A DNA stretch of 32,000 bases from Cyclobacteriaceae bacterium. GTDB lineage: Bacteria; Bacteroidota; Bacteroidia; Cytophagales; Cyclobacteriaceae. The notes below the pieces were generated by a model. The model saw nothing but the letters and a program-made list of their open reading frames with translations, searched no databases and was not told the origin of the DNA. The position numbers were made by a program, and so were the translations under genes. The DNA is taken from NCBI GenBank assembly GCA_039944535.1, contig JBDUYP010000022.1, forward strand, positions 1 through 32,000, written 5' to 3'. Below, in pieces: positions 2,499-18,001 of this stretch; positions within the stretch are counted from its first letter, which is position 1, and every line of letters starts with the position of its first letter.

Positions 2499-5465
2499 TC
2501 AATAATACTCCTTAATATACTCATAGGCCCTATCAAAGAGCACTTGATCCTTATGAAGTTGATATTTCAGCAAGGCTTTTCTCAAGGACTTTTGAACCTC
2601 CCGCTCCCCCGCTGATGAGTTTTGCCATCCTGGGAAGCGTACCTGCTTCACTATTTCATCAATGTCTTTGACGATCCGCTCCACCACCGCTGGAGTCTGA
2701 TCTGTTTTTAATTCGATGAATAATTCCGTTAAGGCAGCCTGAGGCGTTTTCTCTTCAATCAATGATTCCAGTTCCTTCTCAGCCAGCACCGTTTCTCTGG
2801 CCAGTTTGCAGAGTTCCTTTACAAACTCAATGGACGTAATCAATCCCTGCTCTGCTTTATCTCTGAGGGCTTCAAGACGTTCACTCAATTTTTTGAACTT
2901 CGGATTGCCTGCATGCTTCTTGAATCGCTTAATCAAGATGCCTTCCAGCTTAGCTGCGTTTCTTGGATCAGGATTGTTGAAGATCTCTTCGATCACATCG
3001 GCATCCAAAACGAACTCATCGAGGTGGTGAACATCGCCAACATGAATGTTTTCATGGATCAGTTTGGTGGTCTGTGCACCTAGCGTAAACCATAACAATT
3101 TTCCAGTATGATCTGAGGCAGGTCGTACCGATTCAAAAACTTGAGATAACCATTTGTAATCTTCCTGAAACTCATCTAAAACTGCATCTGGAGAAAGGGA
3201 CTCCCAAAGTTTCGAGAGGTATTTGAAGTCCTTAGCAAAGGCATCTTTCTTTTCGTCAGTACCAATAGCATTTTGGGCAGCCTCTAATCCTTCAAAACCT
3301 GTAACCTTACGATCTACCCCAATAAAATGATTCAAGGCTTTGGCGGCTGCATCAGGTAATTCTTCCTTAAGATTGGAGAGGTTAGTGATAACCTTCATCA
3401 CGCTCTTTTCATCAAATTGGAGTGCCTTGGCTGCATCATCAAAAACACCGAAATAATCGACAATGCGCCCAAAATGTTTGCCCTTATACAGTCGGTTGGT
3501 TCTGCATATGGCTTGAAGCAGGGTATGATCCTTGATGGATTTGTCCAGGTAAATGGTTTGGAGAATGGGTGCGTCAAATCCCGTGAGGAGCTTAGCAGTG
3601 ACGATGATAAATTTCAATGGTGAATGCTCATCCTCAAATTCCTCCACGATCTTTTCCTGCTTTCCTTTGTCCACACCCCATTTCTGCTTGAAGTCAAAAT
3701 CATCGTTGGCAGATGTAGAAATCACCACCCTGCTTGCTGCAGGATCAAAGTATTTATCCAGTTCCTCTTTATACTGCACACAGGCATACCGATCTGGGGT
3801 CACGATCATGGCCTTAAATCCATGCGGCTCCACTTTCTCTCGGAAATGCTGTGCAATGTCCTCCACGATCTTAGCTACCCGCTCCGGACTTTTGAGAAAT
3901 GCGGCCATCCGGGCAGAATGCTTGTTCAGCGCATCCGCCTCTTCATCAGACAAAGCTGAGGATTCCTTGAATGCTGCAAATAGCTTGTCGATGTTGTCGG
4001 TATCCACATGAACATCAACCAGCCTGGGCTCAAAATGTAGCGGTTTGGTGGCATCATCCCTAAGAGAGTCATGGAAGGTATATCGCGACATGTAGCCGCC
4101 CTGATCTTCCTCTGACCCGAAAGCCCAGAAGGTATTTTTGTCTGCTTTATTGACGGGTGTTCCCGTAAGACCAAACAGAAAGGCATTAGGCAATGCGGCA
4201 CGCATCTGGCGCCCCAAGTCGCCTTCCTGCGTACGGTGAGCCTCATCCACCATCACGATGATGTTCTCACGATCGTTCAGGTTGGGAGGTGCATCCCGAA
4301 ACTTGTGGATCATGGTAATGATGATCTTTCTGGTGTCTTTCTGCAAAAGATCTTTCAACTCACTGATACTCTCTGTAGTGATTACATTGGCCACATCTGC
4401 TGCATTGAATGTGCCACTGATCTGCGTATCCAAATCTGTACGATCTACCAGTATCAACACCGTGGGGCTCCTTAGATCGGCAAGCTTGCGCAACTTTTGC
4501 GCCGCGAAAACCATCAATAGTGATTTACCTGAACCTTGAAAATGCCAGATGAGTCCTTTTTTGATTCTCCCCTCCCTGACTCGCTCCACCAGCTTATTGG
4601 CACCCTCGTACTGCTGAAACCGGCAAATGATTTTAATCCTTCTTTTTTTACTGTCCGTGGTGAAGAGGGTGAAGTTTTGTAGGATGTCCAATAACCTGCC
4701 GGGATTCAATAAATCAGATAACTCCTTTCCGATCTCTCCAAGCCCAAGGCGCCTGGCCAAATCATCTTCATCTCCCTCTATCCGCCAGGGCGCCCAAAAA
4801 TCCAGAGGTGTGCGCACACCGCCATAATAAAGTTGCTTGCCCTCAGATGCAAAAGAGAGCACATTGGGTACGAACAATTGTGGTACCGCATTCTCATAGA
4901 TGTCGTGCACCTCGTGCGCACCATCCAGCCAACTGATAGACGGACGGATAGGTGTTTTCACTTCCCCGACTACTACGGGCAGTCCATTAATCAAGAGAAT
5001 GATGTCTGGGATCTTAGTCTCCCTGTGATGAACCCGGTATTGGTTGGTGATAATGTAGGTATTATTGGCCTTGTGATCAAAATCAATCAGGCGCACGGGC
5101 ACGTGCCGGTTATTCTCACCAAAGGGCATGGTTTTCTCACCCGTCATCCACTTGAAAAACTCCTCATTGGCACGAACGAGACCTACCTGATTCACTGTGA
5201 GTAGTATGGCACGAAGCTTATAGATGACTTCATCTGCCAATTCATTTCGTTCGGCGATTTCCGGATTCAGGTTGATCAAAGCCATGCGCAACTCCGACTC
5301 CACCAGTACCTCATTAATGCCTCTGCCTAGCTCGGAGGCAGAACGATATTGCCAACTATTACTGTAGGATACCTTGGGTTCTTCTGCCGCATTGCTATTG
5401 AGGTTGGTGCCGCTAAGCTGATGAATGATATAGTGCTCTACACTATTGAGTTCGTTAAATCCCAT
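2499..5465 (-). CDS. hsdR: Type I restriction enzyme R subunit
   Basis: 988 aa with SF2 helicase motifs: HFQGSGKSLLMVF (Walker A), MVDEAHRTQEG (DEAH), FGLTGTPV, QAICRTNRL. The N-terminus is nuclease-like. It shares an operon with hsdM and hsdS. Confidence 0.95.
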   Translation of the reverse strand: MGFNELNSVEHYIIHQLSGTNLNSNAAEEPKVSYSNSWQYRSASELGRGINEVLVESELRMALINLNPEIAERNELADEVIYKLRAILLTVNQVGLVRANEEFFKWMTGEKTMPFGENNRHVPVRLIDFDHKANNTYIITNQYRVHHRETKIPDIILLINGLPVVVGEVKTPIRPSISWLDGAHEVHDIYENAVPQLFVPNVLSFASEGKQLYYGGVRTPLDFWAPWRIEGDEDDLARRLGLGEIGKELSDLLNPGRLLDILQNFTLFTTDSKKRRIKIICRFQQYEGANKLVERVREGRIKKGLIWHFQGSGKSLLMVFAAQKLRKLADLRSPTVLILVDRTDLDTQISGTFNAADVANVITTESISELKDLLQKDTRKIIITMIHKFRDAPPNLNDRENIIVMVDEAHRTQEGDLGRQMRAALPNAFLFGLTGTPVNKADKNTFWAFGSEEDQGGYMSRYTFHDSLRDDATKPLHFEPRLVDVHVDTDNIDKLFAAFKESSALSDEEADALNKHSARMAAFLKSPERVAKIVEDIAQHFREKVEPHGFKAMIVTPDRYACVQYKEELDKYFDPAASRVVISTSANDDFDFKQKWGVDKGKQEKIVEEFEDEHSPLKFIIVTAKLLTGFDAPILQTIYLDKSIKDHTLLQAICRTNRLYKGKHFGRIVDYFGVFDDAAKALQFDEKSVMKVITNLSNLKEELPDAAAKALNHFIGVDRKVTGFEGLEAAQNAIGTDEKKDAFAKDFKYLSKLWESLSPDAVLDEFQEDYKWLSQVFESVRPASDHTGKLLWFTLGAQTTKLIHENIHVGDVHHLDEFVLDADVIEEIFNNPDPRNAAKLEGILIKRFKKHAGNPKFKKLSERLEALRDKAEQGLITSIEFVKELCKLARETVLAEKELESLIEEKTPQAALTELFIELKTDQTPAVVERIVKDIDEIVKQVRFPGWQNSSAGEREVQKSLRKALLKYQLHKDQVLFDRAYEYIKEYY

Positions 5466-6150
5466 CGACAGTATTCTTTAATGTGGTCATGATCATACCA
5501 AATCGCTCGTCTTGCTGATCATGATATAGGTTGCCAATAATGGCTTCCTGCAACAATTTACTTTCCAAAATCAATAAAAAGGATTCCTTTAGATAGTTTC
5601 TTACCGTTTCATCTGAATTGAGGATCTTTTCACGGATATCAGAAGTATGATTGAGTAAATAAACAATGTCCTCAAAATCATGACTGGCATATAAGTCCTT
5701 CATACCGCGATCACGGAAGGCGTCAAACTTGGCGGCCAAGAAATAGGGTAATGGTAAAATTCTGATAGTCAACCCTTCCAGATCATAGTGCAAGGCTTGA
5801 TCAAAACCAAGCTCAAACCAACGGTTGCCAGGTGCCCAACCAACGGGTTTGGTAGCCATCACATCGACAAGCACATCTTCATATCGGAAGCGGCAGACCA
5901 CTGAATCCTCCGCAGATTGTGTGAATCCACGACTGATCAACTCCTCTCGCAAAGTTTCCAGCGCTCCCAGACTGGCAATCTCCATGGTCAAGTCCAGGTC
6001 TTTTGTAGGACGAACATCATCTGCAGATGGATCATCTATGTACAAACTGACTACTGCTCCTCCTACATACACCACTTGATCATTAAGCTCTCCTAAAGCA
6101 GTGGCGATCTTCTTCGTGACTGCCCGATTGATTTGCGTATTCTTTAGCAT
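5455..6150 (-). CDS. Nucleotidyltransferase-fold protein (AbiEii-like toxin candidate)
   Basis: 231 aa. It has a Pol-beta-type NTase signature, VVYVGGAVVSLY...PTKDLDLTMEI (GG then DxD), and a helical C-terminal region. It overlaps the upstream wHTH gene by 7 nt and the hsdR start by 11 nt. Confidence 0.55.
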   Translation of the reverse strand: MLKNTQINRAVTKKIATALGELNDQVVYVGGAVVSLYIDDPSADDVRPTKDLDLTMEIASLGALETLREELISRGFTQSAEDSVVCRFRYEDVLVDVMATKPVGWAPGNRWFELGFDQALHYDLEGLTIRILPLPYFLAAKFDAFRDRGMKDLYASHDFEDIVYLLNHTSDIREKILNSDETVRNYLKESFLLILESKLLQEAIIGNLYHDQQDERFGMIMTTLKNTVDGI

Positions 6151-6656
6151 ATCCGCTTTTTGAGTTCTTCTACCGCGATGTTTCGTTCACGTGCTCTGCC
6201 TACTCTGAGCGCATCACACAAGGCCATTACTTCATAAAATGCCGGATCTTTGAGACAGGCGACAGGCACACTTGGATAAAGAGGCTCTATGGCCTGACCT
6301 CTCACATTCCCTTCATGATGTGGCCATACATACGGAGCATCACTCATGATCTCCTCGCTCAGTGGTGGCGCGGCATGGGCGGTTGGTACTCCTCTTAATA
6401 GCGCACCAGGCCGCTGGGGATAGACATACCGAAGACCATATTGCAAAAAATCCATTAAGGCTTGCCGCATCAGCTCCTTCTTGTTCTGAAACAATAACCC
6501 AGCAATGGACGAACGGTTCAGGCTCTCACTCACTTCACTGGCACTGATCTCCAACTCACGCGAAAGCTCTTTCATGGTCCAGGGCTGCTCACCTTTGATG
6601 GCTATTTTGAGTAGGATGACCACATCCTGTGGACGCATACCGCTGTGCTTTTTCAT
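6144..6656 (-). CDS. Winged-HTH regulator (AbiEi-like antitoxin / controller candidate)
   Basis: 170 aa. The N-terminal wHTH-like segment is VVILLKIAIKGEQPWTMKELSRELEISASEVSESLNRSSIAGLL, followed by a conserved-looking C-terminal domain. It is the first gene after a 133-nt intergenic gap that contains a perfect palindrome. Confidence 0.5.
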   Translation of the reverse strand: MKKHSGMRPQDVVILLKIAIKGEQPWTMKELSRELEISASEVSESLNRSSIAGLLFQNKKELMRQALMDFLQYGLRYVYPQRPGALLRGVPTAHAAPPLSEEIMSDAPYVWPHHEGNVRGQAIEPLYPSVPVACLKDPAFYEVMALCDALRVGRARERNIAVEELKKRIC

Positions 6657-6701
6657 TGGATGAGTGTTTTGCTATCCAGTAAAGGTAGGATTTAAATTCT
6701 T

Positions 6702-6720
6702 AATTCGCGAATCGCGAATT
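6702..6720. promoter_or_regulatory. Perfect 19-bp palindrome AATTCGCGA-a-TCGCGAATT; candidate operator for the wHTH protein
   Basis: 9-bp arms around a single central base, located 46-64 nt upstream of the wHTH start (6656). A Bacteroidetes -7-like element (TAccTTTa on the minus strand) lies between it and the start codon. Confidence 0.5.
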
Positions 6721-6789
6721 ACCAATGTTTGCTTTAGTGATCTGGCAATGCTATAGTGTTCGGTGCTATTGAATTCGATTAAATGCATA

Positions 6790-7665
6790 TCAGGGTTGAA
6801 TCAATTGATTCAATTTTTTAAAAGCATGATTTAAAACATTAATCTGAGATTGAATTGTGAACCGATACAAAACGTAATCGGTATACTGAGTGAAAATCTT
6901 GTATCTCCAATGATCAAAGGAATCTTCCTCTGCTATTGGCTGGAGAATATTCTCATAAATAACATCTTCAACATCTTGCTTAGCCACTTCAAAGGATCTT
7001 TGCCCATTACTATATCTCTCAACCCTTTTTGTTATTTTTTTTAGAAACTCGTCAATAAATTTCTGACGACCGTTTACGTAAAGTTCATCCCGATTTAAAT
7101 CATATACCCTGATTGATTCTTCGCCTTTATCGCTAAGATGTTCAAGCTTTCCATCTCTCAAATACACTAAATGATCATCTGGATTATCCAGTTCAGGATT
7201 AATTAAGACTGGTTTTTCTATTTTAATAGTACTAGAATAAGAGTAATTATGATTGAGGTCAATATTTTGACCAATCCATATAGGACTATCTAATCTCCTA
7301 ACTCCATTTAATAATGGAAATTCAGTACCCTTATGGCCATTGCAATTACCGCATGCGAATAGAAGATTTGTCCATTCATAGCCTAACCAATAATATCCTG
7401 TGTGTGCTGTTCCCTTTACACCATCTTTAGGTCGAAAATGCTCTACTTGCAAACGACTGCCCTTAGGTTTCTGATTACAATAAGCACACTTTTCATGATA
7501 ATAATTATCTAAAGCAGTTTTGACAATATTAGATCGATAAATAGAGGATGATTTAGCAGGCCATCTTTTTGACGTACTCAAATTAAGTATAGCACTATCA
7601 TATGCTGCCCAACCTGGCTTTAAATTACGAGGTGGGTTTGTCAAATTCTTATTGATTTTTCTCAC
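6790..7665 (-). CDS. HNH endonuclease (TIGR02646/PtuB-like)
   Basis: 291 aa. HNH core: CAYCNQKPKGSRLQVEHFRPK ... WTNLLFACGNCNGHKG (two CxxC pairs, catalytic His, Asn). GTG start at 7665 overlaps the upstream ATPase gene by 17 nt. Confidence 0.75.
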   Translation of the reverse strand: MRKINKNLTNPPRNLKPGWAAYDSAILNLSTSKRWPAKSSSIYRSNIVKTALDNYYHEKCAYCNQKPKGSRLQVEHFRPKDGVKGTAHTGYYWLGYEWTNLLFACGNCNGHKGTEFPLLNGVRRLDSPIWIGQNIDLNHNYSYSSTIKIEKPVLINPELDNPDDHLVYLRDGKLEHLSDKGEESIRVYDLNRDELYVNGRQKFIDEFLKKITKRVERYSNGQRSFEVAKQDVEDVIYENILQPIAEEDSFDHWRYKIFTQYTDYVLYRFTIQSQINVLNHAFKKLNQLIQP

Positions 7666-9451
7666 GAAACTTGGATTTTAGCTTTTCTAGAAATTCTTTA
7701 TTATCCGGATCTCGCAGTTCATTCTTCTTCTTTAATTCTTCAAATTCCTGAACCTCATTGAAAGTGTCTCCTGTAAATACATTTTTTCGATTTGGGTTCT
7801 GAACAGAAACTATTTCGTCGAAACCGAAAAGCTCAGAAGTAAGCAATTGGTTTGGCAATAGTTTATCAATGTTTATTTCCATAAAATCTAACCTCTCTAA
7901 TTCTACGGAAGATTTATTCCTTCTTAACCTAAGAAATACACTATTGGGTGGAGCTCCCAATAATGGAATTGGGCTGTGAGTTGTAACTATGAATTGAATG
8001 CCTGGAAATGCTTCATTCAATCTTATTATTAGCTCTTTTTGTGCACTAGGATGGAGATGAAGATCAATTTCATCTACAAGAACTATTCCTCGAAATTTAG
8101 CCGGATCTTCAACTTTTGGTTGTTGATCATAAAACCTGATAATGATATCAGACACAAACGAAAGTGTGCTTTTAGTACCTGAAGATAGCTGATCATAAGT
8201 GAGTTTAGAAACATTCTCGTCTTCATCATATCGAATAAAATAATCTGCTTTGACAACATTTCTTTCTTTATTAAAATGTACATCAACTAAGCCTGGAACA
8301 ACCTCACATAAAACCTGCACAATTAAATATTCACGATCCATAAACCGATTGAATTTCTCAATATCTGAATACCAATATTTTAATATTCGAGGTAGTTCAA
8401 TTAATCCCCTAGGAGTTCGTGCAAAGAGAGAATCTAACCTACCTTTTTTTGATAAGTGTTCCTCTGCCGGATTACTACCAGAAGTATCATACCTTTTCCA
8501 TAAACTCAATCGAAAAACTCCATAAGCAGCGAATCCATGAACCAAGGGGCGTTTTGCATACTTTGCATCACGACTATTTTCTGCACGCTTATAATGCTTT
8601 ATTGTATTATCATTCCTAACCAGATCAGCTTCAAATGATGTCCTTCCTTCCTGAAAATAATCCTTGGGAATTAATCCATACCCCAGCACTAATGCAATCG
8701 CCTTTAATAAGTTAGTCTTTCCAGATCCATTCTCACCTGTAATGAATATCCACCTGTTATTCATCGGAAGATTCCTAAATTCAATATGCTGGAAATTCGC
8801 AAAGTTGTTGACTACAAAAGAACTAATATAGGTGCCTCTATCCTTGTTTAAACCCTCTGTTAACTCGTAATCACGCTGAGCCTTACGGTGCTCTAAATGT
8901 TTAAAAATCTTGGCTCTACTATTTGAGAATTCATACTCATTAATAAAGCCAATTTTATCCCGTTCAATTATACTCTTTGAAAAGTATGACCCGTGGTTTT
9001 TCAAGACAACATCATCAATTGCCTTTTTTTCATTTTCAAGAAAATCTGATAATATACTTTCAATACTTCTGCCTTCTCCCACGATATATCGAAATCGCTC
9101 AATAGCTCCGTCCTCTCTTATTTTATCAAATTCCAGTAGCGGCACGATATGATCACGAAGAATATCGTATTTCCCACTTTCCTCCTCTGACATTGTAACA
9201 TCAAGCGATATGGTATAATTGACCTCATCACTTTCGCGAATAATCAAGCTTATATTAGGTAGTTTAGTTTGCCAGTTAACGCCAGTCCAAAATGAAACAG
9301 CCAAAAATTTCTCATTCCCGAAAAACCAATAGCCTCTTTCGAGCTTATTCCCCACATTGCTTTTTCTCAATGTAAATCTCAATTCAGGATCTTCTCTCCT
9401 TTTATATTCATCAAGAAATTCAAACAGTTCAGTATGGACATCTACCTTCAT
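7649..9451 (-). CDS. ABC/SMC-type ATPase (AAA_15/AAA_21, PtuA-like) with a ~205-aa uncharacterised N-terminal domain
   Basis: 600 aa. Motifs: ITGENGSGKTNLLKAI (Walker A, ~res 238), LSSGTKSTL (signature-like), VLVDEIDLHLHP (Walker B/D-loop), VTTHSP (H-loop). I recognise no motif in residues 1-205. The ATG is 2 nt after the hsdS stop. Confidence 0.8.
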   Translation of the reverse strand: MKVDVHTELFEFLDEYKRREDPELRFTLRKSNVGNKLERGYWFFGNEKFLAVSFWTGVNWQTKLPNISLIIRESDEVNYTISLDVTMSEEESGKYDILRDHIVPLLEFDKIREDGAIERFRYIVGEGRSIESILSDFLENEKKAIDDVVLKNHGSYFSKSIIERDKIGFINEYEFSNSRAKIFKHLEHRKAQRDYELTEGLNKDRGTYISSFVVNNFANFQHIEFRNLPMNNRWIFITGENGSGKTNLLKAIALVLGYGLIPKDYFQEGRTSFEADLVRNDNTIKHYKRAENSRDAKYAKRPLVHGFAAYGVFRLSLWKRYDTSGSNPAEEHLSKKGRLDSLFARTPRGLIELPRILKYWYSDIEKFNRFMDREYLIVQVLCEVVPGLVDVHFNKERNVVKADYFIRYDEDENVSKLTYDQLSSGTKSTLSFVSDIIIRFYDQQPKVEDPAKFRGIVLVDEIDLHLHPSAQKELIIRLNEAFPGIQFIVTTHSPIPLLGAPPNSVFLRLRRNKSSVELERLDFMEINIDKLLPNQLLTSELFGFDEIVSVQNPNRKNVFTGDTFNEVQEFEELKKKNELRDPDNKEFLEKLKSKFREKNQ

Positions 9452-9453
9452 AT

Positions 9454-10578
9454 CTAAAAAATCTGATTGATTAAACTCTTTTGAAGGGATAGGGAGCTTT
9501 CAATCGCAAATGATAGTTTGTCTACATTTACTTGAAAACCTCTCATCTTATTTAGCAAGCCGTTCTCATCATCAAGTACCTTGATCTCAAATTCCCCAAT
9601 TATTTTGTCACTGACTCTTGGCATTTTAGTACCAAATCCTTTCCCGGTTACATACTGAATAAAAGGTCTACTATGAAAATGATTTAATACATATTCTTTA
9701 GAAACTCCTTTAGTGTCGTAAATCAAGAGTTCTGTTGTAGATACGGCTTCAAATTCAGCAATAAAAGCTTTATCCAAGTATGGTCTGAGCTTGCTGTAGC
9801 ATAAATCACCTTCCTCAATGATATTGCATTGGGCTAATACTTCAGAAGAATCTCCACATTCCGTACAATGAGATGCACCAGACTTGATATGCTCTAGTCC
9901 GATATATTTTTTAAAAGTATGTGGAACTTGACTTTTCGATTTCTTTGGGATAAGAACCTTGGCTAATGGTATTTTTTTACCTTTTGACTTTATTATTTCA
10001 TTTTCAAAGAAAACTTGAGATGAAGTTTTCAACCTCTCCAACACCTCCCTCTCCCTTTCAATCACCTCATCCATGGCCCAGAGGAGTTCGGCCAGCTGGG
10101 CTTGCTGGTCTTTGGGGGGAAGGAGGAATTCGTAGTTGGCCAGGTCTTTAAACTTTACTCTTGGGGAAAGACCTCCTGCCGAATGCTTCACCGCGTAATC
10201 AAAGAACTTGTTATTGCAAACGATAAACGGCAATAGTTCAGGCATCAGGTTCTCCTTAGCTCTAAATACTGTAATATCTCCAGAGCAAATCCCACTAAAA
10301 GACGCTTGAGCGGCTTTCTTTAGATAAGCCCTTCTTCTGCCAAACAACACATCACCTTTGGAGAATTTCTTACTGAAAGTTGTGCTCTCCTCCAGCTTGC
10401 CAGATCGGGTCAAATGGATGTTCTCCGTATCGATATGCTCCAGCCCCACTACATGTTCTATCCCTTCATTGTAGATGTCTTTCGCATTTTCTTTTGGCTC
10501 AAATACCACATCACCAAACTTGACTGGTGTCCAATCTGACTTATCGATTTTAAGTTCTTGAATCGCTGATTCAATCAT
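9454..10578 (-). CDS. hsdS: Type I R-M specificity subunit
   Basis: 374 aa with two variable target-recognition regions. They are separated by a conserved helical spacer (QQAQLAELLWAMDEVIEREREVLERLK), and there is a second conserved helix at the C-terminus. ATGA start/stop overlap with hsdM1. Confidence 0.9.
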   Translation of the reverse strand: MIESAIQELKIDKSDWTPVKFGDVVFEPKENAKDIYNEGIEHVVGLEHIDTENIHLTRSGKLEESTTFSKKFSKGDVLFGRRRAYLKKAAQASFSGICSGDITVFRAKENLMPELLPFIVCNNKFFDYAVKHSAGGLSPRVKFKDLANYEFLLPPKDQQAQLAELLWAMDEVIEREREVLERLKTSSQVFFENEIIKSKGKKIPLAKVLIPKKSKSQVPHTFKKYIGLEHIKSGASHCTECGDSSEVLAQCNIIEEGDLCYSKLRPYLDKAFIAEFEAVSTTELLIYDTKGVSKEYVLNHFHSRPFIQYVTGKGFGTKMPRVSDKIIGEFEIKVLDDENGLLNKMRGFQVNVDKLSFAIESSLSLQKSLINQIF

Positions 10579-12041
10579 TTCTCTAATATTTCAAAAAGTT
10601 GATTCATTGATTTCGTCAAGTCTTTTGATGACCCGTCCCAGGCTGCATACGCATCATTAAAACTGATATCATTTTCACTGGAATGCTCTTCTGGTCGGAT
10701 GTACAAACTGATTGACATGTTGGCATTCTTTTCCAAAACCTCTGATGTCTCAATGCGTTTGCTAAACTTTTCTTGATTTGAAAAAGCAGTGTAAGCATTA
10801 AATATCTTTTGGACATGATCGTCTTCCAAATAGCCCATGGTCTTTTCTTGTTTCACTTCATTCACGGCATTGATGAACAGGATTTTTCCTTTTTTATGTT
10901 CAGGCTTGTGATTGCAGGTAATCAATAAACACGCCTCCATAGGCGAGTTGTAAAACAAGTTTGGCCCTAGTCCGATCACACAATCGACCAAATCCTCTTC
11001 AATCATCTTTCTGCGCATTGCTGCTTCAGAATCACGGAATAAAATCCCATGTGGCCATAAGGAAATAGAACGCCCGTTATCAGGATTCAAACTCTTTTGA
11101 ATATGCTGCTGAAACGCATAATCCGCACAACCTTGTGGCGGCACACCCCAGAGGTTACGTCCGTAAGGGTCGTTGGCAAAGCTTTTCTGGTCCCAGGCTT
11201 TAATGCTGTAAGGGGGATTGGCCAGGATGACGTTGAAGGTCTTAAGCTCGTCGTTGTGCAAAAAGGCCGGGTTGGCCAGCGTATCGCCCCGCACAATGCT
11301 AAACTCCTCTATGCCGTGCATAAACATGTTCATGCGAGCAATGGCCGAGGTAAGCAGGTTAATCTCCTGCCCGTAAAGTTTCAGGGTGCGGTATTCCTTT
11401 CCTTCTTCCTTCAGGTGCAGGGCGCAGTTAAGCAACAAACCGCCTGAACCACAAGTAGGGTCATAGACACTTTCGCCCGGCTGAGGGTCCATGATCAGGG
11501 TCATCAGCTTCACCACCGTGCGGTTGGTGTAAAACTCCGCAGCAGTGTGTCCGCTATCGTCGGCAAATTCCTTGATCAGGTATTCGTAGGCATTGCCCAG
11601 TTTATCATCTGCCACATTGCTCAGGCTCAGCTTGTGCTGGGAGTAATGCTCTATAAGGTTGGTGAGGGTCTCGTCACTCAGCCGGTCTTTGTTGGTCCAG
11701 CTGGCATCCCCAAAGATGCCGTAAAGCGTATCGGGGTTTGCTTTTTCTATAGCCCGCATGGCTTCCTGCAAGGCTATCCCTACATTGGCAGTGGTTTCAC
11801 GCACATCCTTCCAATGGGCTCCATCAGGTACTAGAAAATGGTGGTGTTCTGTGAAAGCAGCGTATTCCATATCGCCATCACTTTCTTCCAGTGCCTTTTC
11901 AAACTCTTCGTCATAGACATCACAGATACGCTTGAAGAACAACAGCGGAAAGATGTACTGCTTGTAGTCACCCGCATCGATGGTGCCTCGCAATTGGGTA
12001 GCCGCTCCCCAAAGGTATTTTTCGAGTTGTTGTTGGGTCAT
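10575..12041 (-). CDS. hsdM: Type I R-M N6-adenine DNA methyltransferase subunit (copy 1, coupled to hsdS)
   Basis: 488 aa with an HsdM N-terminal domain (YIFPLLFFKRICDVYDEEF), SAM motif DPTCGSGG and catalytic ANPPYS. Confidence 0.95.
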   Translation of the reverse strand: MTQQQLEKYLWGAATQLRGTIDAGDYKQYIFPLLFFKRICDVYDEEFEKALEESDGDMEYAAFTEHHHFLVPDGAHWKDVRETTANVGIALQEAMRAIEKANPDTLYGIFGDASWTNKDRLSDETLTNLIEHYSQHKLSLSNVADDKLGNAYEYLIKEFADDSGHTAAEFYTNRTVVKLMTLIMDPQPGESVYDPTCGSGGLLLNCALHLKEEGKEYRTLKLYGQEINLLTSAIARMNMFMHGIEEFSIVRGDTLANPAFLHNDELKTFNVILANPPYSIKAWDQKSFANDPYGRNLWGVPPQGCADYAFQQHIQKSLNPDNGRSISLWPHGILFRDSEAAMRRKMIEEDLVDCVIGLGPNLFYNSPMEACLLITCNHKPEHKKGKILFINAVNEVKQEKTMGYLEDDHVQKIFNAYTAFSNQEKFSKRIETSEVLEKNANMSISLYIRPEEHSSENDISFNDAYAAWDGSSKDLTKSMNQLFEILEK

Positions 12042-12055
12042 ATCTTATTTATTAA

Positions 12056-12106
12056 CCACAGATTCACACAGATAACCACAGATTTAATCTGAGTGATCCG
12101 TGGTGA
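12056..12106. repeat. Array of CACAGAT motifs (3 copies, 10-nt period) followed by two degenerate inverted copies
   Basis: CACAGAT at 12057-12063, 12067-12073 and 12077-12083, then atctgagtg / atccgtggtg at 12088-12105. It lies between the GxxExxY stop (12113) and the hsdM1 start (12041). Confidence 0.9.
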
Positions 12107-12112
12107 CCGTTT

Positions 12113-12487
12113 TTACATTATTATTCTATTTATTCCCTTTTTCATATCCTGCACATTGAAGTTGAGCAACAGCCCCAACTTTAATCCAGATAGTTTTAAA
12201 TACGTCATCAACTGTGCTTTATGAATCGGGGCAATTTCATCCACCGATTTGAGTTCCAGAATGATTTGTCCGTTCACCAAGAGATCAATTCGATAACCGG
12301 CATCCAGTTTTATCTCGTTATACACCACCGGAAGTGCTTTTTGTCGTTCGACATTCAATCCTGTTTTTAGCAATTCATGCTCTAAACAGACTTCATAGGT
12401 TGATTCCAAAAGGCCGGGCCCCAATTCCGTATGAACTTTATATACACAGCCAATAATCTTATAGGACAATTCATTCAAAGATTCCAT
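12113..12487 (-). CDS. GxxExxY protein (PD-(D/E)XK nuclease-like, PDDEXK_3 family)
   Basis: 124 aa with the eponymous motif GPGLLESTYE (G-L-L-E-S-T-Y) and a downstream D...ELK core (IDLLVNGQIILELKS). Confidence 0.85.
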   Translation of the reverse strand: MESLNELSYKIIGCVYKVHTELGPGLLESTYEVCLEHELLKTGLNVERQKALPVVYNEIKLDAGYRIDLLVNGQIILELKSVDEIAPIHKAQLMTYLKLSGLKLGLLLNFNVQDMKKGINRIIM

Positions 12488-12514
12488 CTGTGCTAATCTG
12501 CGCTATCTGTGGTG
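12486..12514. repeat. Inverted-orientation array ATCTGTG / ATCTGCG / ATCTGTGGTG (about 10-nt period)
   Basis: Motifs at 12486-12492, 12496-12502 and 12505-12514. They are the reverse complement of the CACAGAT motifs at 12056-12083. The array overlaps the GxxExxY start codon and encodes the last codons and stop of hsdM2 (KFTTDSAD*). Confidence 0.9.
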
Positions 12515-13989
12515 AACTTCATTAGTATCTTCTTAAACTTCACCTCTGCCTGTTGACTTGCTTCCCAAGCAGTTTTCAAATCCGCAAGTGCTTCTTCCAC
12601 ACTCGGAAGGTTGTCTTCAATAACCTTCTCTACGTACAATGGAATATTGAGATTGAAGTCGTTCTCCTCAAGGTCTTTGAGATCGGCCACTTTCACATAG
12701 TTCTCCACATCAGCATATGACTTGAACCACTTAAATATCTGGTTGACATGCTCTGGTTCCAGATAGTTTTGAGCTCTACCCACGCGTACCTGATCGGAAG
12801 CATCGATAAAAAGGACTTTGCCTTTCTTATCAGAATTCTTGTTTTGCTTGAACACCATCACACAAGCCGCCAGTTGAGTTCCGTAGAAGATATTAGGCCC
12901 CAAACCAATGACCGCTTCCAGCATGTCTTGCTTAATGAGCGCTTGCCTTATTCGCCCTTCTGCTCCTTTTCTAAATAAAGCACCATGTGGCAGTACTACC
13001 GTCATTCGTCCCGTGCTGTTCATAGACTTGATCATGTGCTGCACCCAGGCCATGTCGCCATTGCCTTGGGGAGGCACTCCCGCAATGTTGCGTCCATAAG
13101 GATCGTTTGCCCAATTCTCAGCGCCCCATTCTTTCAATGAAAATGGAGGATTGGCGATCACACAATCAAAGGTCTTCAAACCATCAGCTTCAAAGAAGGC
13201 TGGATGGCGCAAAGTGTCTCCCCTATGAATCTGAAAGTCTTCAATCCCATGAAGAAACATATTCATCCGGGCAATCGAACTGGAGGTTAGATTCTTTTCC
13301 TGTCCATAAAGCTTTAGTGTACGGAAATCTTCGTCATTGTGCTTAAGGTGGTCAATGCATTCCAGCAGCATTCCACCGGTACCGCACGCAGGATCATAGA
13401 TGGTTTCTCCTTCATGTGGGTCGAGGATCAATCCCAGTAAATGAACCACTGATCTTGGTGTATAGAATTCGCCCGCTTTCTTATTGGTTAGATCTGCAAA
13501 GTGCTTGATCAGGTATTCGTAGGCGTTTCCAAGCAAATCTGAATCTACATTGCTGTTGGAGAGCTCGTATTGCGAAAAATGCTCGATCAGATCAATAAGC
13601 AACCGATCCGAGAGTTTATTCTTGTTGCTCCATTGGGCATCTCCGAATATGCCATAGAGAAATTCCTGATTGGCTTGTTCTATTCCCCGCAAAGCTTTTT
13701 CGATAGCCAAGCCCACATTGGAGGTAGTTTCTCTGACGTCATTCCAATGACAGCTTTCAGGAATAACAAACCGGTGGAATTCCGGCAATGACGCATATTC
13801 ATTGTCTCCATCGGATTCCTCCAGAGCCACACGGAATTCTTCATCATATACATCAGATATCCTTTTGAAAAACAAGAGTGGAAAGATGTAAACCTTAAAG
13901 TCCGAAGCATCTACCGGGCCTTTGAGTATCCAGGCTGCTTTAGACAAATATTGTTCGAGTTGCGATTGTGTGAGATTTTTACTTTGCAA
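12493..13989 (-). CDS. hsdM: Type I R-M N6-adenine DNA methyltransferase subunit (copy 2, no cognate hsdS)
   Basis: 498 aa, colinear with copy 1 over its full length. It has YIFPLLFFKRISDVYDEEF, DPACGTGG and ANPPFS. The apparent start is TTG at 13989; there is no in-frame ATG upstream before a stop. Confidence 0.9.
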   Translation of the reverse strand: MQSKNLTQSQLEQYLSKAAWILKGPVDASDFKVYIFPLLFFKRISDVYDEEFRVALEESDGDNEYASLPEFHRFVIPESCHWNDVRETTSNVGLAIEKALRGIEQANQEFLYGIFGDAQWSNKNKLSDRLLIDLIEHFSQYELSNSNVDSDLLGNAYEYLIKHFADLTNKKAGEFYTPRSVVHLLGLILDPHEGETIYDPACGTGGMLLECIDHLKHNDEDFRTLKLYGQEKNLTSSSIARMNMFLHGIEDFQIHRGDTLRHPAFFEADGLKTFDCVIANPPFSLKEWGAENWANDPYGRNIAGVPPQGNGDMAWVQHMIKSMNSTGRMTVVLPHGALFRKGAEGRIRQALIKQDMLEAVIGLGPNIFYGTQLAACVMVFKQNKNSDKKGKVLFIDASDQVRVGRAQNYLEPEHVNQIFKWFKSYADVENYVKVADLKDLEENDFNLNIPLYVEKVIEDNLPSVEEALADLKTAWEASQQAEVKFKKILMKFTTDSAD

Positions 13990-14142
13990 TTTTCTTGGGA
14001 GTTGGATGACTAAAAGTAGACATCAAAGCGGTCATTATGATGATCAATTAAATATATTTATAGATGTTGGTATATGCATATCCTTTTCAGCTGTAAAACA
14101 CGATTATAGTGAACAATTTTAAATAATCATCTAAGTGACGTT

Positions 14143-15153
14143 ATGAATGAAACAGACATAACCCCTGAGAAGATCGAAAAAGACATTGACTCAAAACGAT
14201 CAGAAATAGAAATAGATGTCAAAAAAGAGTTGCCGAAAATTCAAATCTATAAGAATATTTCAGATCAGAATGACCATTTTCAGGGATACTTTAATCTCCG
14301 AAGATCAGGTCTCTTTGAAGTAACCCTAAAGGTAGAAGGGGACAAATCCTACAGCCATTTCAATACTTTTATTAAAGCCTGTGCCGAGGAATTTGATTCC
14401 TGGCATAATTCACTGACATCCTCATACCTCCCTGAGTATTTCAAAAAAAACAAGAGTGATGTACTCTCAGATAGAAATAACCTTTGGGATCTTCGGGACA
14501 TCCACTTGCATAAATTGCAACAACTGGGTGAGAAAACCGGGCTTTATGCTGACCGTGAATTATTACTTAACCCTGAACTGAATAAATTGTATGAAGTCAT
14601 CATTGAAGCGCATGTATTGAAAGACATGTTTGTCAAAGTAGAATCAATGAATGTTGATGACCCAAACATGATTGATAATTTCCTGAACGACACACAAGAT
14701 CCTTTTCAGGAGCTGCGCGAATTGGAAAATAAATTCAACACGGCTAGTGTTGGTGAATTGATCAACTTTTTCAGTGTTCTAAGAAAGGAAGTTAGAGGCC
14801 AAAGTGGACCAATAGCGTCGAACCAAGATATTGTCAACCTTGTGAAATCAATACTTAGCAAACAAGTCAAGAAAGGAAGTATCAAACCAAACCTAGTAAG
14901 TTCAGACTATCCAGCAGTAAGGAGGCTGTTTTTTGACTTTTACAATGAATTCAAAGAAAGAGACAAGTACCAAATTGAACCAATGCTTCGCAAGCAAGAC
15001 TACCTGAAATTCATAGAGAATTTCGAGCCATTTAAGGAAGCCACTTCAAGCGATTCATGGATCAAGGATACAAACCCGAAAAAACAGAGCACAACACTGA
15101 CGGAATTGACAAGTAGAAGGAAAAATCCTCTACAACCTCTACTTGAAAAATAG
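14143..15153 (+). CDS. Hypothetical protein (336 aa), no recognised domain
   Basis: Long ATG-initiated ORF, divergent from hsdM2 across a 153-nt AT-rich spacer. Predicted to be acidic and helical. There is a weak resemblance to RteC-like regulators of Bacteroidetes mobile elements, which I do not trust. Confidence 0.6.
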   Translation: MNETDITPEKIEKDIDSKRSEIEIDVKKELPKIQIYKNISDQNDHFQGYFNLRRSGLFEVTLKVEGDKSYSHFNTFIKACAEEFDSWHNSLTSSYLPEYFKKNKSDVLSDRNNLWDLRDIHLHKLQQLGEKTGLYADRELLLNPELNKLYEVIIEAHVLKDMFVKVESMNVDDPNMIDNFLNDTQDPFQELRELENKFNTASVGELINFFSVLRKEVRGQSGPIASNQDIVNLVKSILSKQVKKGSIKPNLVSSDYPAVRRLFFDFYNEFKERDKYQIEPMLRKQDYLKFIENFEPFKEATSSDSWIKDTNPKKQSTTLTELTSRRKNPLQPLLEK

Positions 15154-15231: not shown

Positions 15232-15564
15232 ATGAAAAAAGAATTAAAAAATATCAAAGAATGGCTCCAGGCAGTCATTTTTGATGCCATTGAAAAGGCC
15301 TTTATCAAGTATTATCCCAGAAAGGATCCGGCCAGCAATTTTCTTAATGCGCAAGAAAGCGCGGCATATCTCGGAGATGCAATGCCAACTTTTTACCGCC
15401 GGGTTTCTGAAGGCGAATTACCTACATACGGGGGTGGAAAAAAAATCTTCTGTAAAGAATCTGATCTCATGGATTGGCTCAGCCAAAGCCGGTCTTACAG
15501 CAAAGAACAGCTGGAAAAAAATGCCATCGAAAACATGCAACATAGAATAAGGAGGACGTCATGA
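15232..15564 (+). CDS. HTH_17 / excisionase-family DNA-binding protein
   Basis: 110 aa. LNAQESAAYLGDAMPTFYRRVSEGELPTYGGGKKIFCKESDLMDWL is the MerR-like excisionase HTH pattern common in Bacteroidetes mobile elements. ATGA overlap with the next gene. Confidence 0.75.
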   Translation: MKKELKNIKEWLQAVIFDAIEKAFIKYYPRKDPASNFLNAQESAAYLGDAMPTFYRRVSEGELPTYGGGKKIFCKESDLMDWLSQSRSYSKEQLEKNAIENMQHRIRRTS

Positions 15565-17149: not shown

Positions 17150-18001
17150 ATGTATCAATACCAACTTGATAAATCATCAAAAAAACATCTATGTCCGGCC
17201 TGCGGCCAGAGAAGATTTGTGCGCATAGTTGATATAAATACCGGTGAGCTTTGCGAGGCTGAGTTCGGAAGGTGCGACCGTGAACAGAGTTGTGGTTATA
17301 TACGATTCCCTTCCAAGGTCATGGATCCGCACCTTAATGACAAGGTGCCTAAACAGGTGCAGCAGGTATATGCGCCACCTTCCTTTATTCCTCAAACTTA
17401 TTACAATGACTCTATGAAACTGATGGAGCGAAATACTCTGTTCAAATACTTGATTTCTGAATATGATGACAGCATGGTGCGGCAGACCTGCGCACTGTAT
17501 GGCATGGGTTCAAATCCCTTTGCGCCTGCAGAAACTGTTTTTTGGCAAATCGATGCGCAGGGGCACGCCAGAACGGCAGAAATCATTCAATACTTGCGCA
17601 ATGGTAAGCGTGATCGGGTGCGCCACCCAAACTGGATGCATTCAATACTGCAAAAACGGGGTTTGATAAAGGATTTTAGGCTCGAACAGGTGGCTTATGG
17701 TGCGCAGCTTCTTGGCGCACACAAAGGCAAAGTCGCTGTTGTAGAGGGCGCCAAAACTGCCATAGTCTGCGCACTGAAGTATCCCGAGTACTTATGGCTC
17801 GGAACTCAAGGTGTGCACGGATTAAATGGTAAAATACTCAGCACGTTAAATCCGGCGCAGACAATTCTAGTGCCTGACGCAGGCTTTGAAGATAAATGGC
17901 GCAACAAGTCTATGCACCAATTTCAGATAATGAACATCTCTCAGTTTGTGGAAAAGGGTGAGGATTTGGCGGATTGTTGTTCCACAGACACATTACAATA
18001 A
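17150..18001 (+). CDS. Zn-ribbon + Toprim-domain protein (primase-like)
   Basis: 283 aa. The N-terminal zinc ribbon is CPACGQRRF...GRCDREQSCGY. The C-terminal Toprim-like part has VAVVEGAKTAIV (Glu) and ILVPDAGFEDKW (acidic cluster). Confidence 0.6.
   Translation: MYQYQLDKSSKKHLCPACGQRRFVRIVDINTGELCEAEFGRCDREQSCGYIRFPSKVMDPHLNDKVPKQVQQVYAPPSFIPQTYYNDSMKLMERNTLFKYLISEYDDSMVRQTCALYGMGSNPFAPAETVFWQIDAQGHARTAEIIQYLRNGKRDRVRHPNWMHSILQKRGLIKDFRLEQVAYGAQLLGAHKGKVAVVEGAKTAIVCALKYPEYLWLGTQGVHGLNGKILSTLNPAQTILVPDAGFEDKWRNKSMHQFQIMNISQFVEKGEDLADCCSTDTLQ

Follow-up and report, generated by a model that had tools for sequence, protein, structure and literature searches.

Septu is a two-gene defence system in which the ATPase PtuA is paired with the HNH nuclease PtuB. 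The PtuA and PtuB proteins of Escherichia coli form a 6:2 complex, the nuclease of which is inhibited by ATP, and the reported Septu substrates vary by system, including plasmid nicking, single-stranded DNA, and tRNA-Tyr (PMC12640716). In the retron Ec78, an N-terminal extension of PtuA contacts the partner reverse transcriptase (RT) and non-coding RNA (ncRNA), and stand-alone Septu is described as being under protein-mediated control (PMC12819146). Defence genes that are embedded in type I restriction–modification (R-M) operons lie in the same orientation in 96.7 per cent of cases, and the PADLOC 'PDC' models, PDC-M21 among them, are described in the same study (Payne 2024, bioRxiv 10.1101/2024.01.29.577857). 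In enteropathogenic E. coli (EPEC), DarTG2 is located between hsdS and hsdR, at a site that has been called a potential recombination hotspot for defence systems (PMC12255303). Here, we compare these systems with a ptuA–ptuB pair that lies within a type I R-M operon on a 32,000-nt stretch of DNA from a Cyclobacteriaceae bacterium (GenBank assembly GCA_039944535.1, contig JBDUYP010000022.1, positions 1 to 32,000; hereafter, the window).

Our reading of this locus, to which we assign a probability of roughly 0.75, is that the pair belongs to a Bacteroidota-specific subfamily of Septu type I, that it is carried as cargo in the type I operon, and that an extra N-terminal domain of its ATPase serves as an input. 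The ptuA gene (7649–9451, reverse strand; ATG start) encodes a 600-aa ABC-type ATPase, and the ptuB gene (6790–7665, reverse strand), whose GTG start overlaps the ptuA stop by 17 nt, encodes a 291-aa HNH protein. PADLOC assigns the two proteins to PtuA1 and PtuB1: residues 4–587 of PtuA align with positions 6–575 of the 584 positions of the PtuA model PDLC00287 (E-value = 1.1e-145), and residues 2–286 of PtuB match the PtuB model PDLC00316 (E-value = 5.7e-57), values that exclude a chance match. Pfam detects AAA_21, AAA_15, and SMC_N in PtuA, as well as an HNH match that scores above the cut-off in PtuB. In phmmer searches of PDB sequences, the significant matches of PtuA are PtuA chains only (from the retrons Ec78/Eco7/Ec83 and from E. 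coli Septu), down to an E-value of 2.6e-25, and the ptuB product also matches PtuB chains. The AlphaFold2 (AF2) model of full-length PtuA has a predicted local distance difference test score (pLDDT) of 88.7 and a predicted template modelling score (pTM) of 0.88, and its best 50 matches in a Foldseek search of PDB are all PtuA chains (probability of 1.00; E-values of 7.5e-20 to 5e-15). Full-length profiles, PDB sequence matches, and predicted structure agree with the Septu (PtuA/PtuB) assignment that an initial annotation of this DNA had proposed. As judged from sequence and predicted fold, the pair is an intact, stand-alone Septu type I system that is distant from the characterized E. coli proteins, and the locus can already be annotated by current defence-annotation models.

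Every motif that had been listed for an ABC/SMC-type ATPase core is found in the PtuA translation: Walker A (GENGSGKT, residues 239–246), the signature motif (LSSGTKS, residues 422–428), the stretch VLVDEIDLHLHP at residues 457–468 with Walker B at 457–463, and the H-loop (TTHSP, residues 490–494). The residues of a full HNH core with two CxxC pairs could likewise be located in PtuB (C60xxC63, H76 within VEHFRPK, N100, C105xxC108, and H111). Across 119 homologs, the catalytic residues are invariant, and the ATPase motifs of PtuA are invariant or nearly so. With the Septu type I of E. coli (PDB entries 8EE4, 8EEA, and 8SUX), the window pair shares the two-gene ATPase plus HNH operon, the intact ABC motifs, the two CxxC pairs, and the fold (Foldseek E-value of about 1e-15, TMt of 0.55–0.64). 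It is set apart from E. coli Septu by an additional 205-aa N-terminal domain on PtuA that the solved PtuAs lack, by a PtuB that exceeds the solved one (215 aa) in length by about 75 aa, by a sequence identity to the solved counterparts of only about 18–24 per cent, and by its location within a type I operon. Among solved structures, the best matches in both sequence and fold are those of retron type I-A/Septu type II (Ec78/Eco7 and Ec83/Eco4), the PtuA of which also has an N-terminal extension, used there for partner binding. Unlike in these retrons, neither RT nor ncRNA was found near ptuA and ptuB, as there is no RVT domain among the 17 open reading frames scanned in the window and no Rfam match in its 32 kb. 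The Ec78 extension is, moreover, a helical segment of about 65 aa, to which the 207-aa domain of the window PtuA gives no Foldseek match.

The ptuA start codon, at 9451, lies 2 nt past the stop of hsdS (9454–10578, reverse strand; 374 aa, Pfam Methylase_S), the TAG of which ends at 9454, in agreement with the distance given in the initial annotation. That annotation had also placed the pair between hsdS and hsdR. This is accurate on the hsdS side, but hsdR does not directly follow ptuB, as a 133-nt gap and genes for a winged helix–turn–helix (wHTH) protein and a nucleotidyltransferase intervene. The location within a type I operon, which had been singled out as the outstanding feature of the locus, is real but of a kind that has already been described (Payne 2024; PMC12255303).

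An AT-rich block (6657–10030) with a GC content of 0.34–0.36, as delimited by GC per gene and blastn, extends from the 3' half of hsdS through ptuA and ptuB to the end of the gap that follows. The GC content is 0.338 in the 3' half of hsdS, 0.352 in ptuA, and 0.339 in ptuB; it is 0.449 in the 5' half of hsdS, 0.468 in hsdM1, and 0.464 in hsdR. Nucleotide similarity to four related loci (L057, L063, L012, and L058) covers hsdM2, hsdM1, and the 5' half of hsdS, ends at about 10030, and is back in hsdR; for L012, it already returns in the PDC-M21 genes. Because GC content and similarity break together, the second target recognition domain (TRD) of hsdS, ptuA, and ptuB constitute one compositional and recombinational unit, with a recombination breakpoint inside hsdS that is visible by both measures. 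Most likely, this block was exchanged between operons that have a common conserved frame. Across 13 embedded loci, identity to the window is 78–87 per cent in 10 loci and 51–54 per cent in the remaining three for HsdM2, 71–85 per cent for HsdM1, and 72–81 per cent for HsdR, whereas it is only 32–55 per cent for PtuA and only 29–58 per cent for PtuB. Within some of these loci, the identities of PtuA and PtuB to the window are discordant: PtuB is 56–58 per cent and PtuA 39–42 per cent identical in L059 and L063, and PtuA is 45 per cent and PtuB 31 per cent identical in L058. Such discordance suggests that recombination took place within ptuA or in between the two genes.

We surveyed the corresponding slot in 14 other genomes with an HsdR that is 55–81 per cent identical to that of the window, four of the upstream stretches being shortened by contig ends. 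None of the retrieved stretches contains Septu upstream of hsdR. About 1.8–3.9 kb of other genes separates hsdS and hsdR in 10 of the 14, and the slot contents include DarT with Macro-domain DarG, AAA_15/21 ATPases, an RT and phosphoribosyltransferase (PRTase) pair, a GIY-YIG protein, and others. Gene content also varies upstream of hsdS, with AAA_13 ATPases in the hsdM1–hsdS gap of two of the 14 relatives. A second cargo slot seems to be present between the paired hsdM genes, with GmrSD_N in L063, L064, L065, and L067, DUF4145 in L057, and a large helicase/MTES_1575 protein in L059. DarTG follows Septu in L057, L061, and L062, and a TIR-domain protein precedes it in L007. We therefore interpret the Septu pair as swappable cargo in the variable hsdS–hsdR slot of a mobile two-HsdM type I operon, and the locus clearly illustrates how a type I R-M operon can serve as a constant frame around interchangeable defence genes. 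As with PrrC in EcoprrI and DarTG2 in EPEC, the cargo shares the strand of hsdS and hsdR, lies between them, and is tightly coupled, and the slot contents vary among related operons, DarTG included in the Bacteroidota ones. The window differs from these systems in the identity of its cargo (Septu and PDC-M21) and in its two-HsdM operon with a second cargo position.

Two observations on individual slots can be added. DarT with Macro-domain DarG is found directly upstream of hsdR in L057 (12858–14551), L061 (12744–14437), L062 (10832–12525), L043 (14248–15951), and L048 (105–1807), with or without Septu, which matches the published layout of EPEC DarTG2. Locus L010, from a Roseivirga metagenome-assembled genome, has two tandem Septu pairs between hsdS and hsdR (7860–12518), of which the first has a PtuA without the N-terminal domain (the match begins at query residue 209) and the second has a PtuA with it.

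Whether the N-terminal domain tracks type I linkage, a phylogenetic check proposed in the initial annotation, was evaluated across 25 loci, which consist of the window, the 12 loci listed from representative genomes, and 12 look-ups of better homologs. Fourteen of the 25 are embedded in a type I operon, and 11 are not. Among the representative-genome loci, three of 12 are located between hsdS and hsdR (L007, L010, and L012), and nine of 12 have no hsdM, hsdS, or hsdR within 10 kb; 10 of the 12 look-ups are embedded, the other two being P0098 (Dyadobacter) and P0052. In the 10 embedded look-ups, hsdM2 is followed by a variable gene and hsdM1; after hsdS come ptuA and ptuB, with optional cargo on either side of the pair, and then an hsdR encoding 988–990 aa. 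In the maximum likelihood tree, the window groups in a clade of 10 sequences from several genera (with an SH-aLRT support of 100), all of which are embedded, although these sequences were chosen as the best matches to the window and are not an independent sample. In the sister group of this clade, embedding arises at least three more times, and its distribution on the tree requires a minimum of 4 changes, compared to a mean of 8.4 in shuffled data. The N-terminal domain as such is not tied to type I operons, and one deep clade was found only there: an association with type I linkage fails across the family, with 11 of 25 loci unlinked, and holds among the 10 sampled members of the window's clade.

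This clade motivates the alternative that the Septu pair is wired physically or functionally to the type I enzyme and acts as a PrrC-like guard, in which the N-terminal domain would dock on HsdM/HsdS or sense a phage anti-restriction factor and PtuB would fire when restriction is blocked. The classical precedent for a guard embedded in a type I system is PrrC in EcoprrI. The confinement of the clade, across several genera, to the hsdS–hsdR slot of one two-HsdM operon type and the clustering of embedding on the tree are compatible with such a guard, as are the short distances from the hsdS stop to the ptuA ATG (2–4 nt in the window, L057, and L067; 13–14 nt in L060 and L065) and the fact that PrrC itself is almost exclusively embedded in type I systems (Payne 2024). 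However, the 11 unlinked loci have the same domain with the same invariant residues, other cargo genes separate hsdS from ptuA in five of the 10 embedded-clade loci, and unrelated systems fill the slot in the 14 other close HsdR relatives. Nor does HsdS provide an adaptor: at 374 aa, compared to 383–425 aa in solved PDB HsdS chains, it is of ordinary length for two TRDs and has no extra tail domain, and its residues 1–373 align end to end with the HsdS of L012. A frame that is 71–87 per cent identical around cargo that is 29–58 per cent identical is the pattern expected of swapping rather than of co-adaptation, and the best-match choice of the 10 clade members further reduces the weight of their shared context. 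PrrC is also coupled physically to its R-M enzyme, whereas the window pair is known here from its genes. We consider a guard of this kind unlikely, and we do not regard the N-terminal domain as a dedicated R-M enzyme contact. Somewhat more doubtful still is the specific proposal that the N-terminal domain of the window's clade is a new sensor fold tying Septu firing to the state of the type I enzyme (anti-restriction factors or blocked HsdM/HsdS); if true, it would explain why the clade is found only in one operon family.

The N-terminal domain itself (8831–9451, reverse strand; residues 1–207, about 205 aa) is a real, subfamily-specific module of PtuA. The string quoted from it in the initial annotation is located at residues 39–71. 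Modelled alone with AF2, the domain has a pLDDT of 92.8 and an alpha/beta fold with the element order helix, helix, three strands, helix, two strands, two helices, and long helix. It consists of a conserved half with an aromatic/basic motif (residues 1–75), a fast-evolving half (residues 76–170), and a long linker helix (residues 172–203 in the domain-only model and 172–191 in the full-length model). Conservation is strong at residues 21–60, and the motif consensus is 'YTxRKSN...RLxxGYWFYGNExYLxxSFWSGMDWKNRTPNI'. In the 119 sequences, R29, N32, F43, G45, F54, and W55 are invariant, and L13, L37, G40, W42, S53, G57, P65, I67, L83, and K94 are nearly so. The extension is a family trait, as Walker A lies near residue 230 in all but two of the 118 sequences in which the motif was located (117 homologs and the PtuA of the window).

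Searches for relatives of the domain outside PtuA gave no credible match. Pfam returned only noise on residues 1–207 at E-values up to 10; Foldseek found nothing significant in PDB (best TM-score of 0.3 or less, with weak LAGLIDADG-like matches that are not credible) and no match in BFVD; and a 20-sequence profile of the domain found nothing below an E-value of 0.6 among PDB sequences. The structural comparison suggested in the initial annotation thus yields a confident fold that resembles no known fold in PDB or BFVD, and the description of this region as unrecognized stands as far as Pfam, PDB, and BFVD are concerned. The domain is nevertheless already part of a catalogued PADLOC model (PDLC00287, residues 4–587 of PtuA), which makes it uncharacterized yet not unrecorded. 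The alpha–beta–beta–beta–alpha–beta order could be read as a PD-(D/E)XK nuclease, a reading that we rejected because the domain has no invariant acidic residue and no Foldseek nuclease match. A phmmer search of 1.84 billion representative proteins with the domain recovered 329 clusters, nearly all of about 560–600 aa with the domain at the N terminus. Named matches are from Bacteroidota in every case, and five of 401 genomes sampled from the phylum carry the domain. No further domain was detected in short matches of 104–280 aa, which are probably contig-end fragments rather than stand-alone copies. In some homologs, an additional module precedes the domain: HARE-HTH in P0180 and P0235, HSDR_N_2 in P0222 and P0179, and an unmatched segment of about 158 aa in L012 (5335–7482), P0176, and P0260. 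Apart from its N-terminal domain, the locus is ordinary, and the novelty that is left consists of this rare, unmatched domain and a closest clade that is found only in one operon family.

We infer that the domain is a cue-sensing or regulatory input. Its two halves evolve at different rates: in 11 close pairs of homologs, identity is 45–87 per cent in the motif half (residues 1–75), 24–68 per cent in residues 76–170, and 57–83 per cent in the ATPase segment (residues 206–550). In each of the 11 pairs, residues 76–170 are less conserved than the ATPase segment. When the four segments that precede the C-terminal tail are compared, residues 76–170 have the lowest identity, or one within 2 points of the lowest, in seven pairs; in the other four, the linker helix (residues 171–205) is lower. 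The domain could instead be a structural or oligomerization add-on without sensing, for example, one that replaces the hexamer contacts of E. coli PtuA. Such a role would fit the pTM of 0.88, which predicts a set placement of the domain against the ATPase, and residues 21–60 could serve as an intramolecular interface; added elements are known to have altered the oligomeric state of the Ec78 PtuA (PMC12819146). Yet the fast evolution of residues 76–170 in 11 of 11 pairs suits an input domain better, as do the recognition-type modules (HARE-HTH and HSDR_N_2) that are stacked ahead of it in relatives, and we judge a purely structural role to be improbable. Of the roles offered in the initial annotation (sensor, DNA-binding module, or contact to the R-M complex), R-M contact is disfavoured by the 11 of 25 members with the same invariant motif and no adjacent hsdM, hsdS, or hsdR. 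Generic DNA binding is weakened by the acidic core of the domain (residues 1–170; median net charge of -5, pI of 5.2), and for the same reason, a protein or specific ligand is a likelier target of the input domain than DNA in general.

By analogy with the solved PtuAB complexes of Septu and retrons, PtuA of the window would oligomerize and, in its ATP-bound state, keep the HNH nuclease PtuB switched off. A cue from infection would then free the nuclease to act on DNA or tRNA, and phage replication would stop. The conserved half of the N-terminal domain probably rests against the ATPase or recognizes a fixed ligand, and the fast-evolving half may face a variable cue. If the domain is indeed a sensor, it would offer a handle on how stand-alone Septu senses infection. 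The AT-rich block, that is, Septu with the 3' half of hsdS, probably arrived by recombination between conserved operon frames.

Several points weigh against this interpretation. The NCBIfam PtuA and PtuB models, which are retron Ec78 equivalogs, score 134 and 68 bits, respectively, far short of their cut-offs of 500 and 150. Of the family searches named in the initial annotation, those for AAA_15/AAA_21 were matched in PtuA, and TIGR02646 gave 47.6 bits on PtuB, slightly under its cut-off of 52.15. It is these missed cut-offs that place the pair at a distance from the characterized E. coli proteins. Anti-phage activity, the PtuA:PtuB oligomer, and the ATP-inhibited nuclease are known only for the E. 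coli and retron systems. The charge of the N-terminal core weakens generic DNA binding without indicating a ligand, and the fast evolution of residues 76–170 could reflect relaxed constraint. Finally, functional coupling to the R-M enzyme may exist in the window's own clade, given that 10 of 10 sampled members are embedded.

That the pair instead serves as effector in a different ABC-ATPase system (retron type I-A, PARIS, Gabija/OLD, or RloC/PrrC) is very improbable, as the weaker PADLOC matches to retron ATPase_I-A (3e-39) and, over part of its length, AriA (1e-22) and the retron origin of the best solved-structure matches of PtuA are outweighed by the lack of an RVT domain in the 17 scanned open reading frames and of an Rfam match, by the absence of TOPRIM and anticodon-nuclease domains from both proteins according to Pfam, by the PtuB-type HNH partner, and by the classification of retron PtuAs themselves as Septu type II (PMC12640716). 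None of these systems fits better than Septu. Gabija/OLD and PARIS were rejected for the missing TOPRIM domain and the partial AriA match, and PrrC/RloC because there is no AAA_13 match and the HNH partner is a separate protein, so that only the embedded position is held in common.

The remaining genes of the operon are all on the reverse strand. The hsdM paralog hsdM2 (12493–13989; Pfam N6_Mtase, 8e-104) is followed by a gene for a small PDDEXK_3 protein (12113–12487; PF13366, 6e-45) and by hsdM1 (10575–12041; N6_Mtase, 6e-85, and HsdM_N), which overlaps hsdS by 4 nt. Downstream of ptuB, the 133-nt gap (6657–6789) contains the perfect 19-bp palindrome AATTCGCGATTCGCGAATT at 6702–6720. It is followed by PDC-M21A (6144–6656; PADLOC PDLC04515, 1e-49), which encodes the wHTH protein, and PDC-M21B (5455–6150; PADLOC PDLC04516, 5e-51, and Pfam AbiEii), which encodes an AbiEii-type nucleotidyltransferase and overlaps the start of hsdR by 11 nt. 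From its profile matches, PDC-M21A/B is a putative second embedded cargo pair beside Septu; the same pair also precedes hsdR in L012. The hsdR gene (2499–5465; 988 aa, Pfam HSDR_N, SWI2_SNF2, ResIII, and T1R_D3-like) is overlapped at its 3' end by a T5orf172/MUG113 (GIY-YIG-like) gene (1889–2536), for which no homolog was found in the 13 related operons. Genes hsdM2 through ptuB probably form one transcription unit, given their 2-nt and 17-nt junctions, and PDC-M21A, PDC-M21B, and hsdR are probably a second, palindrome-headed unit. A sigma-70 promoter and terminator scan of 5400–14200, which does not cover Bacteroidota promoters, gave a site count no higher than that of shuffled sequences. The operon is flanked, on the forward strand, by genes for a tyrosine integrase with an Arm-DNA-binding domain (602–1888), an HTH_17 excisionase-like protein (15232–15564), and a Zn-ribbon/DUF6371 protein (17150–18001), and the whole R-M and cargo array is probably carried on an integrative element.

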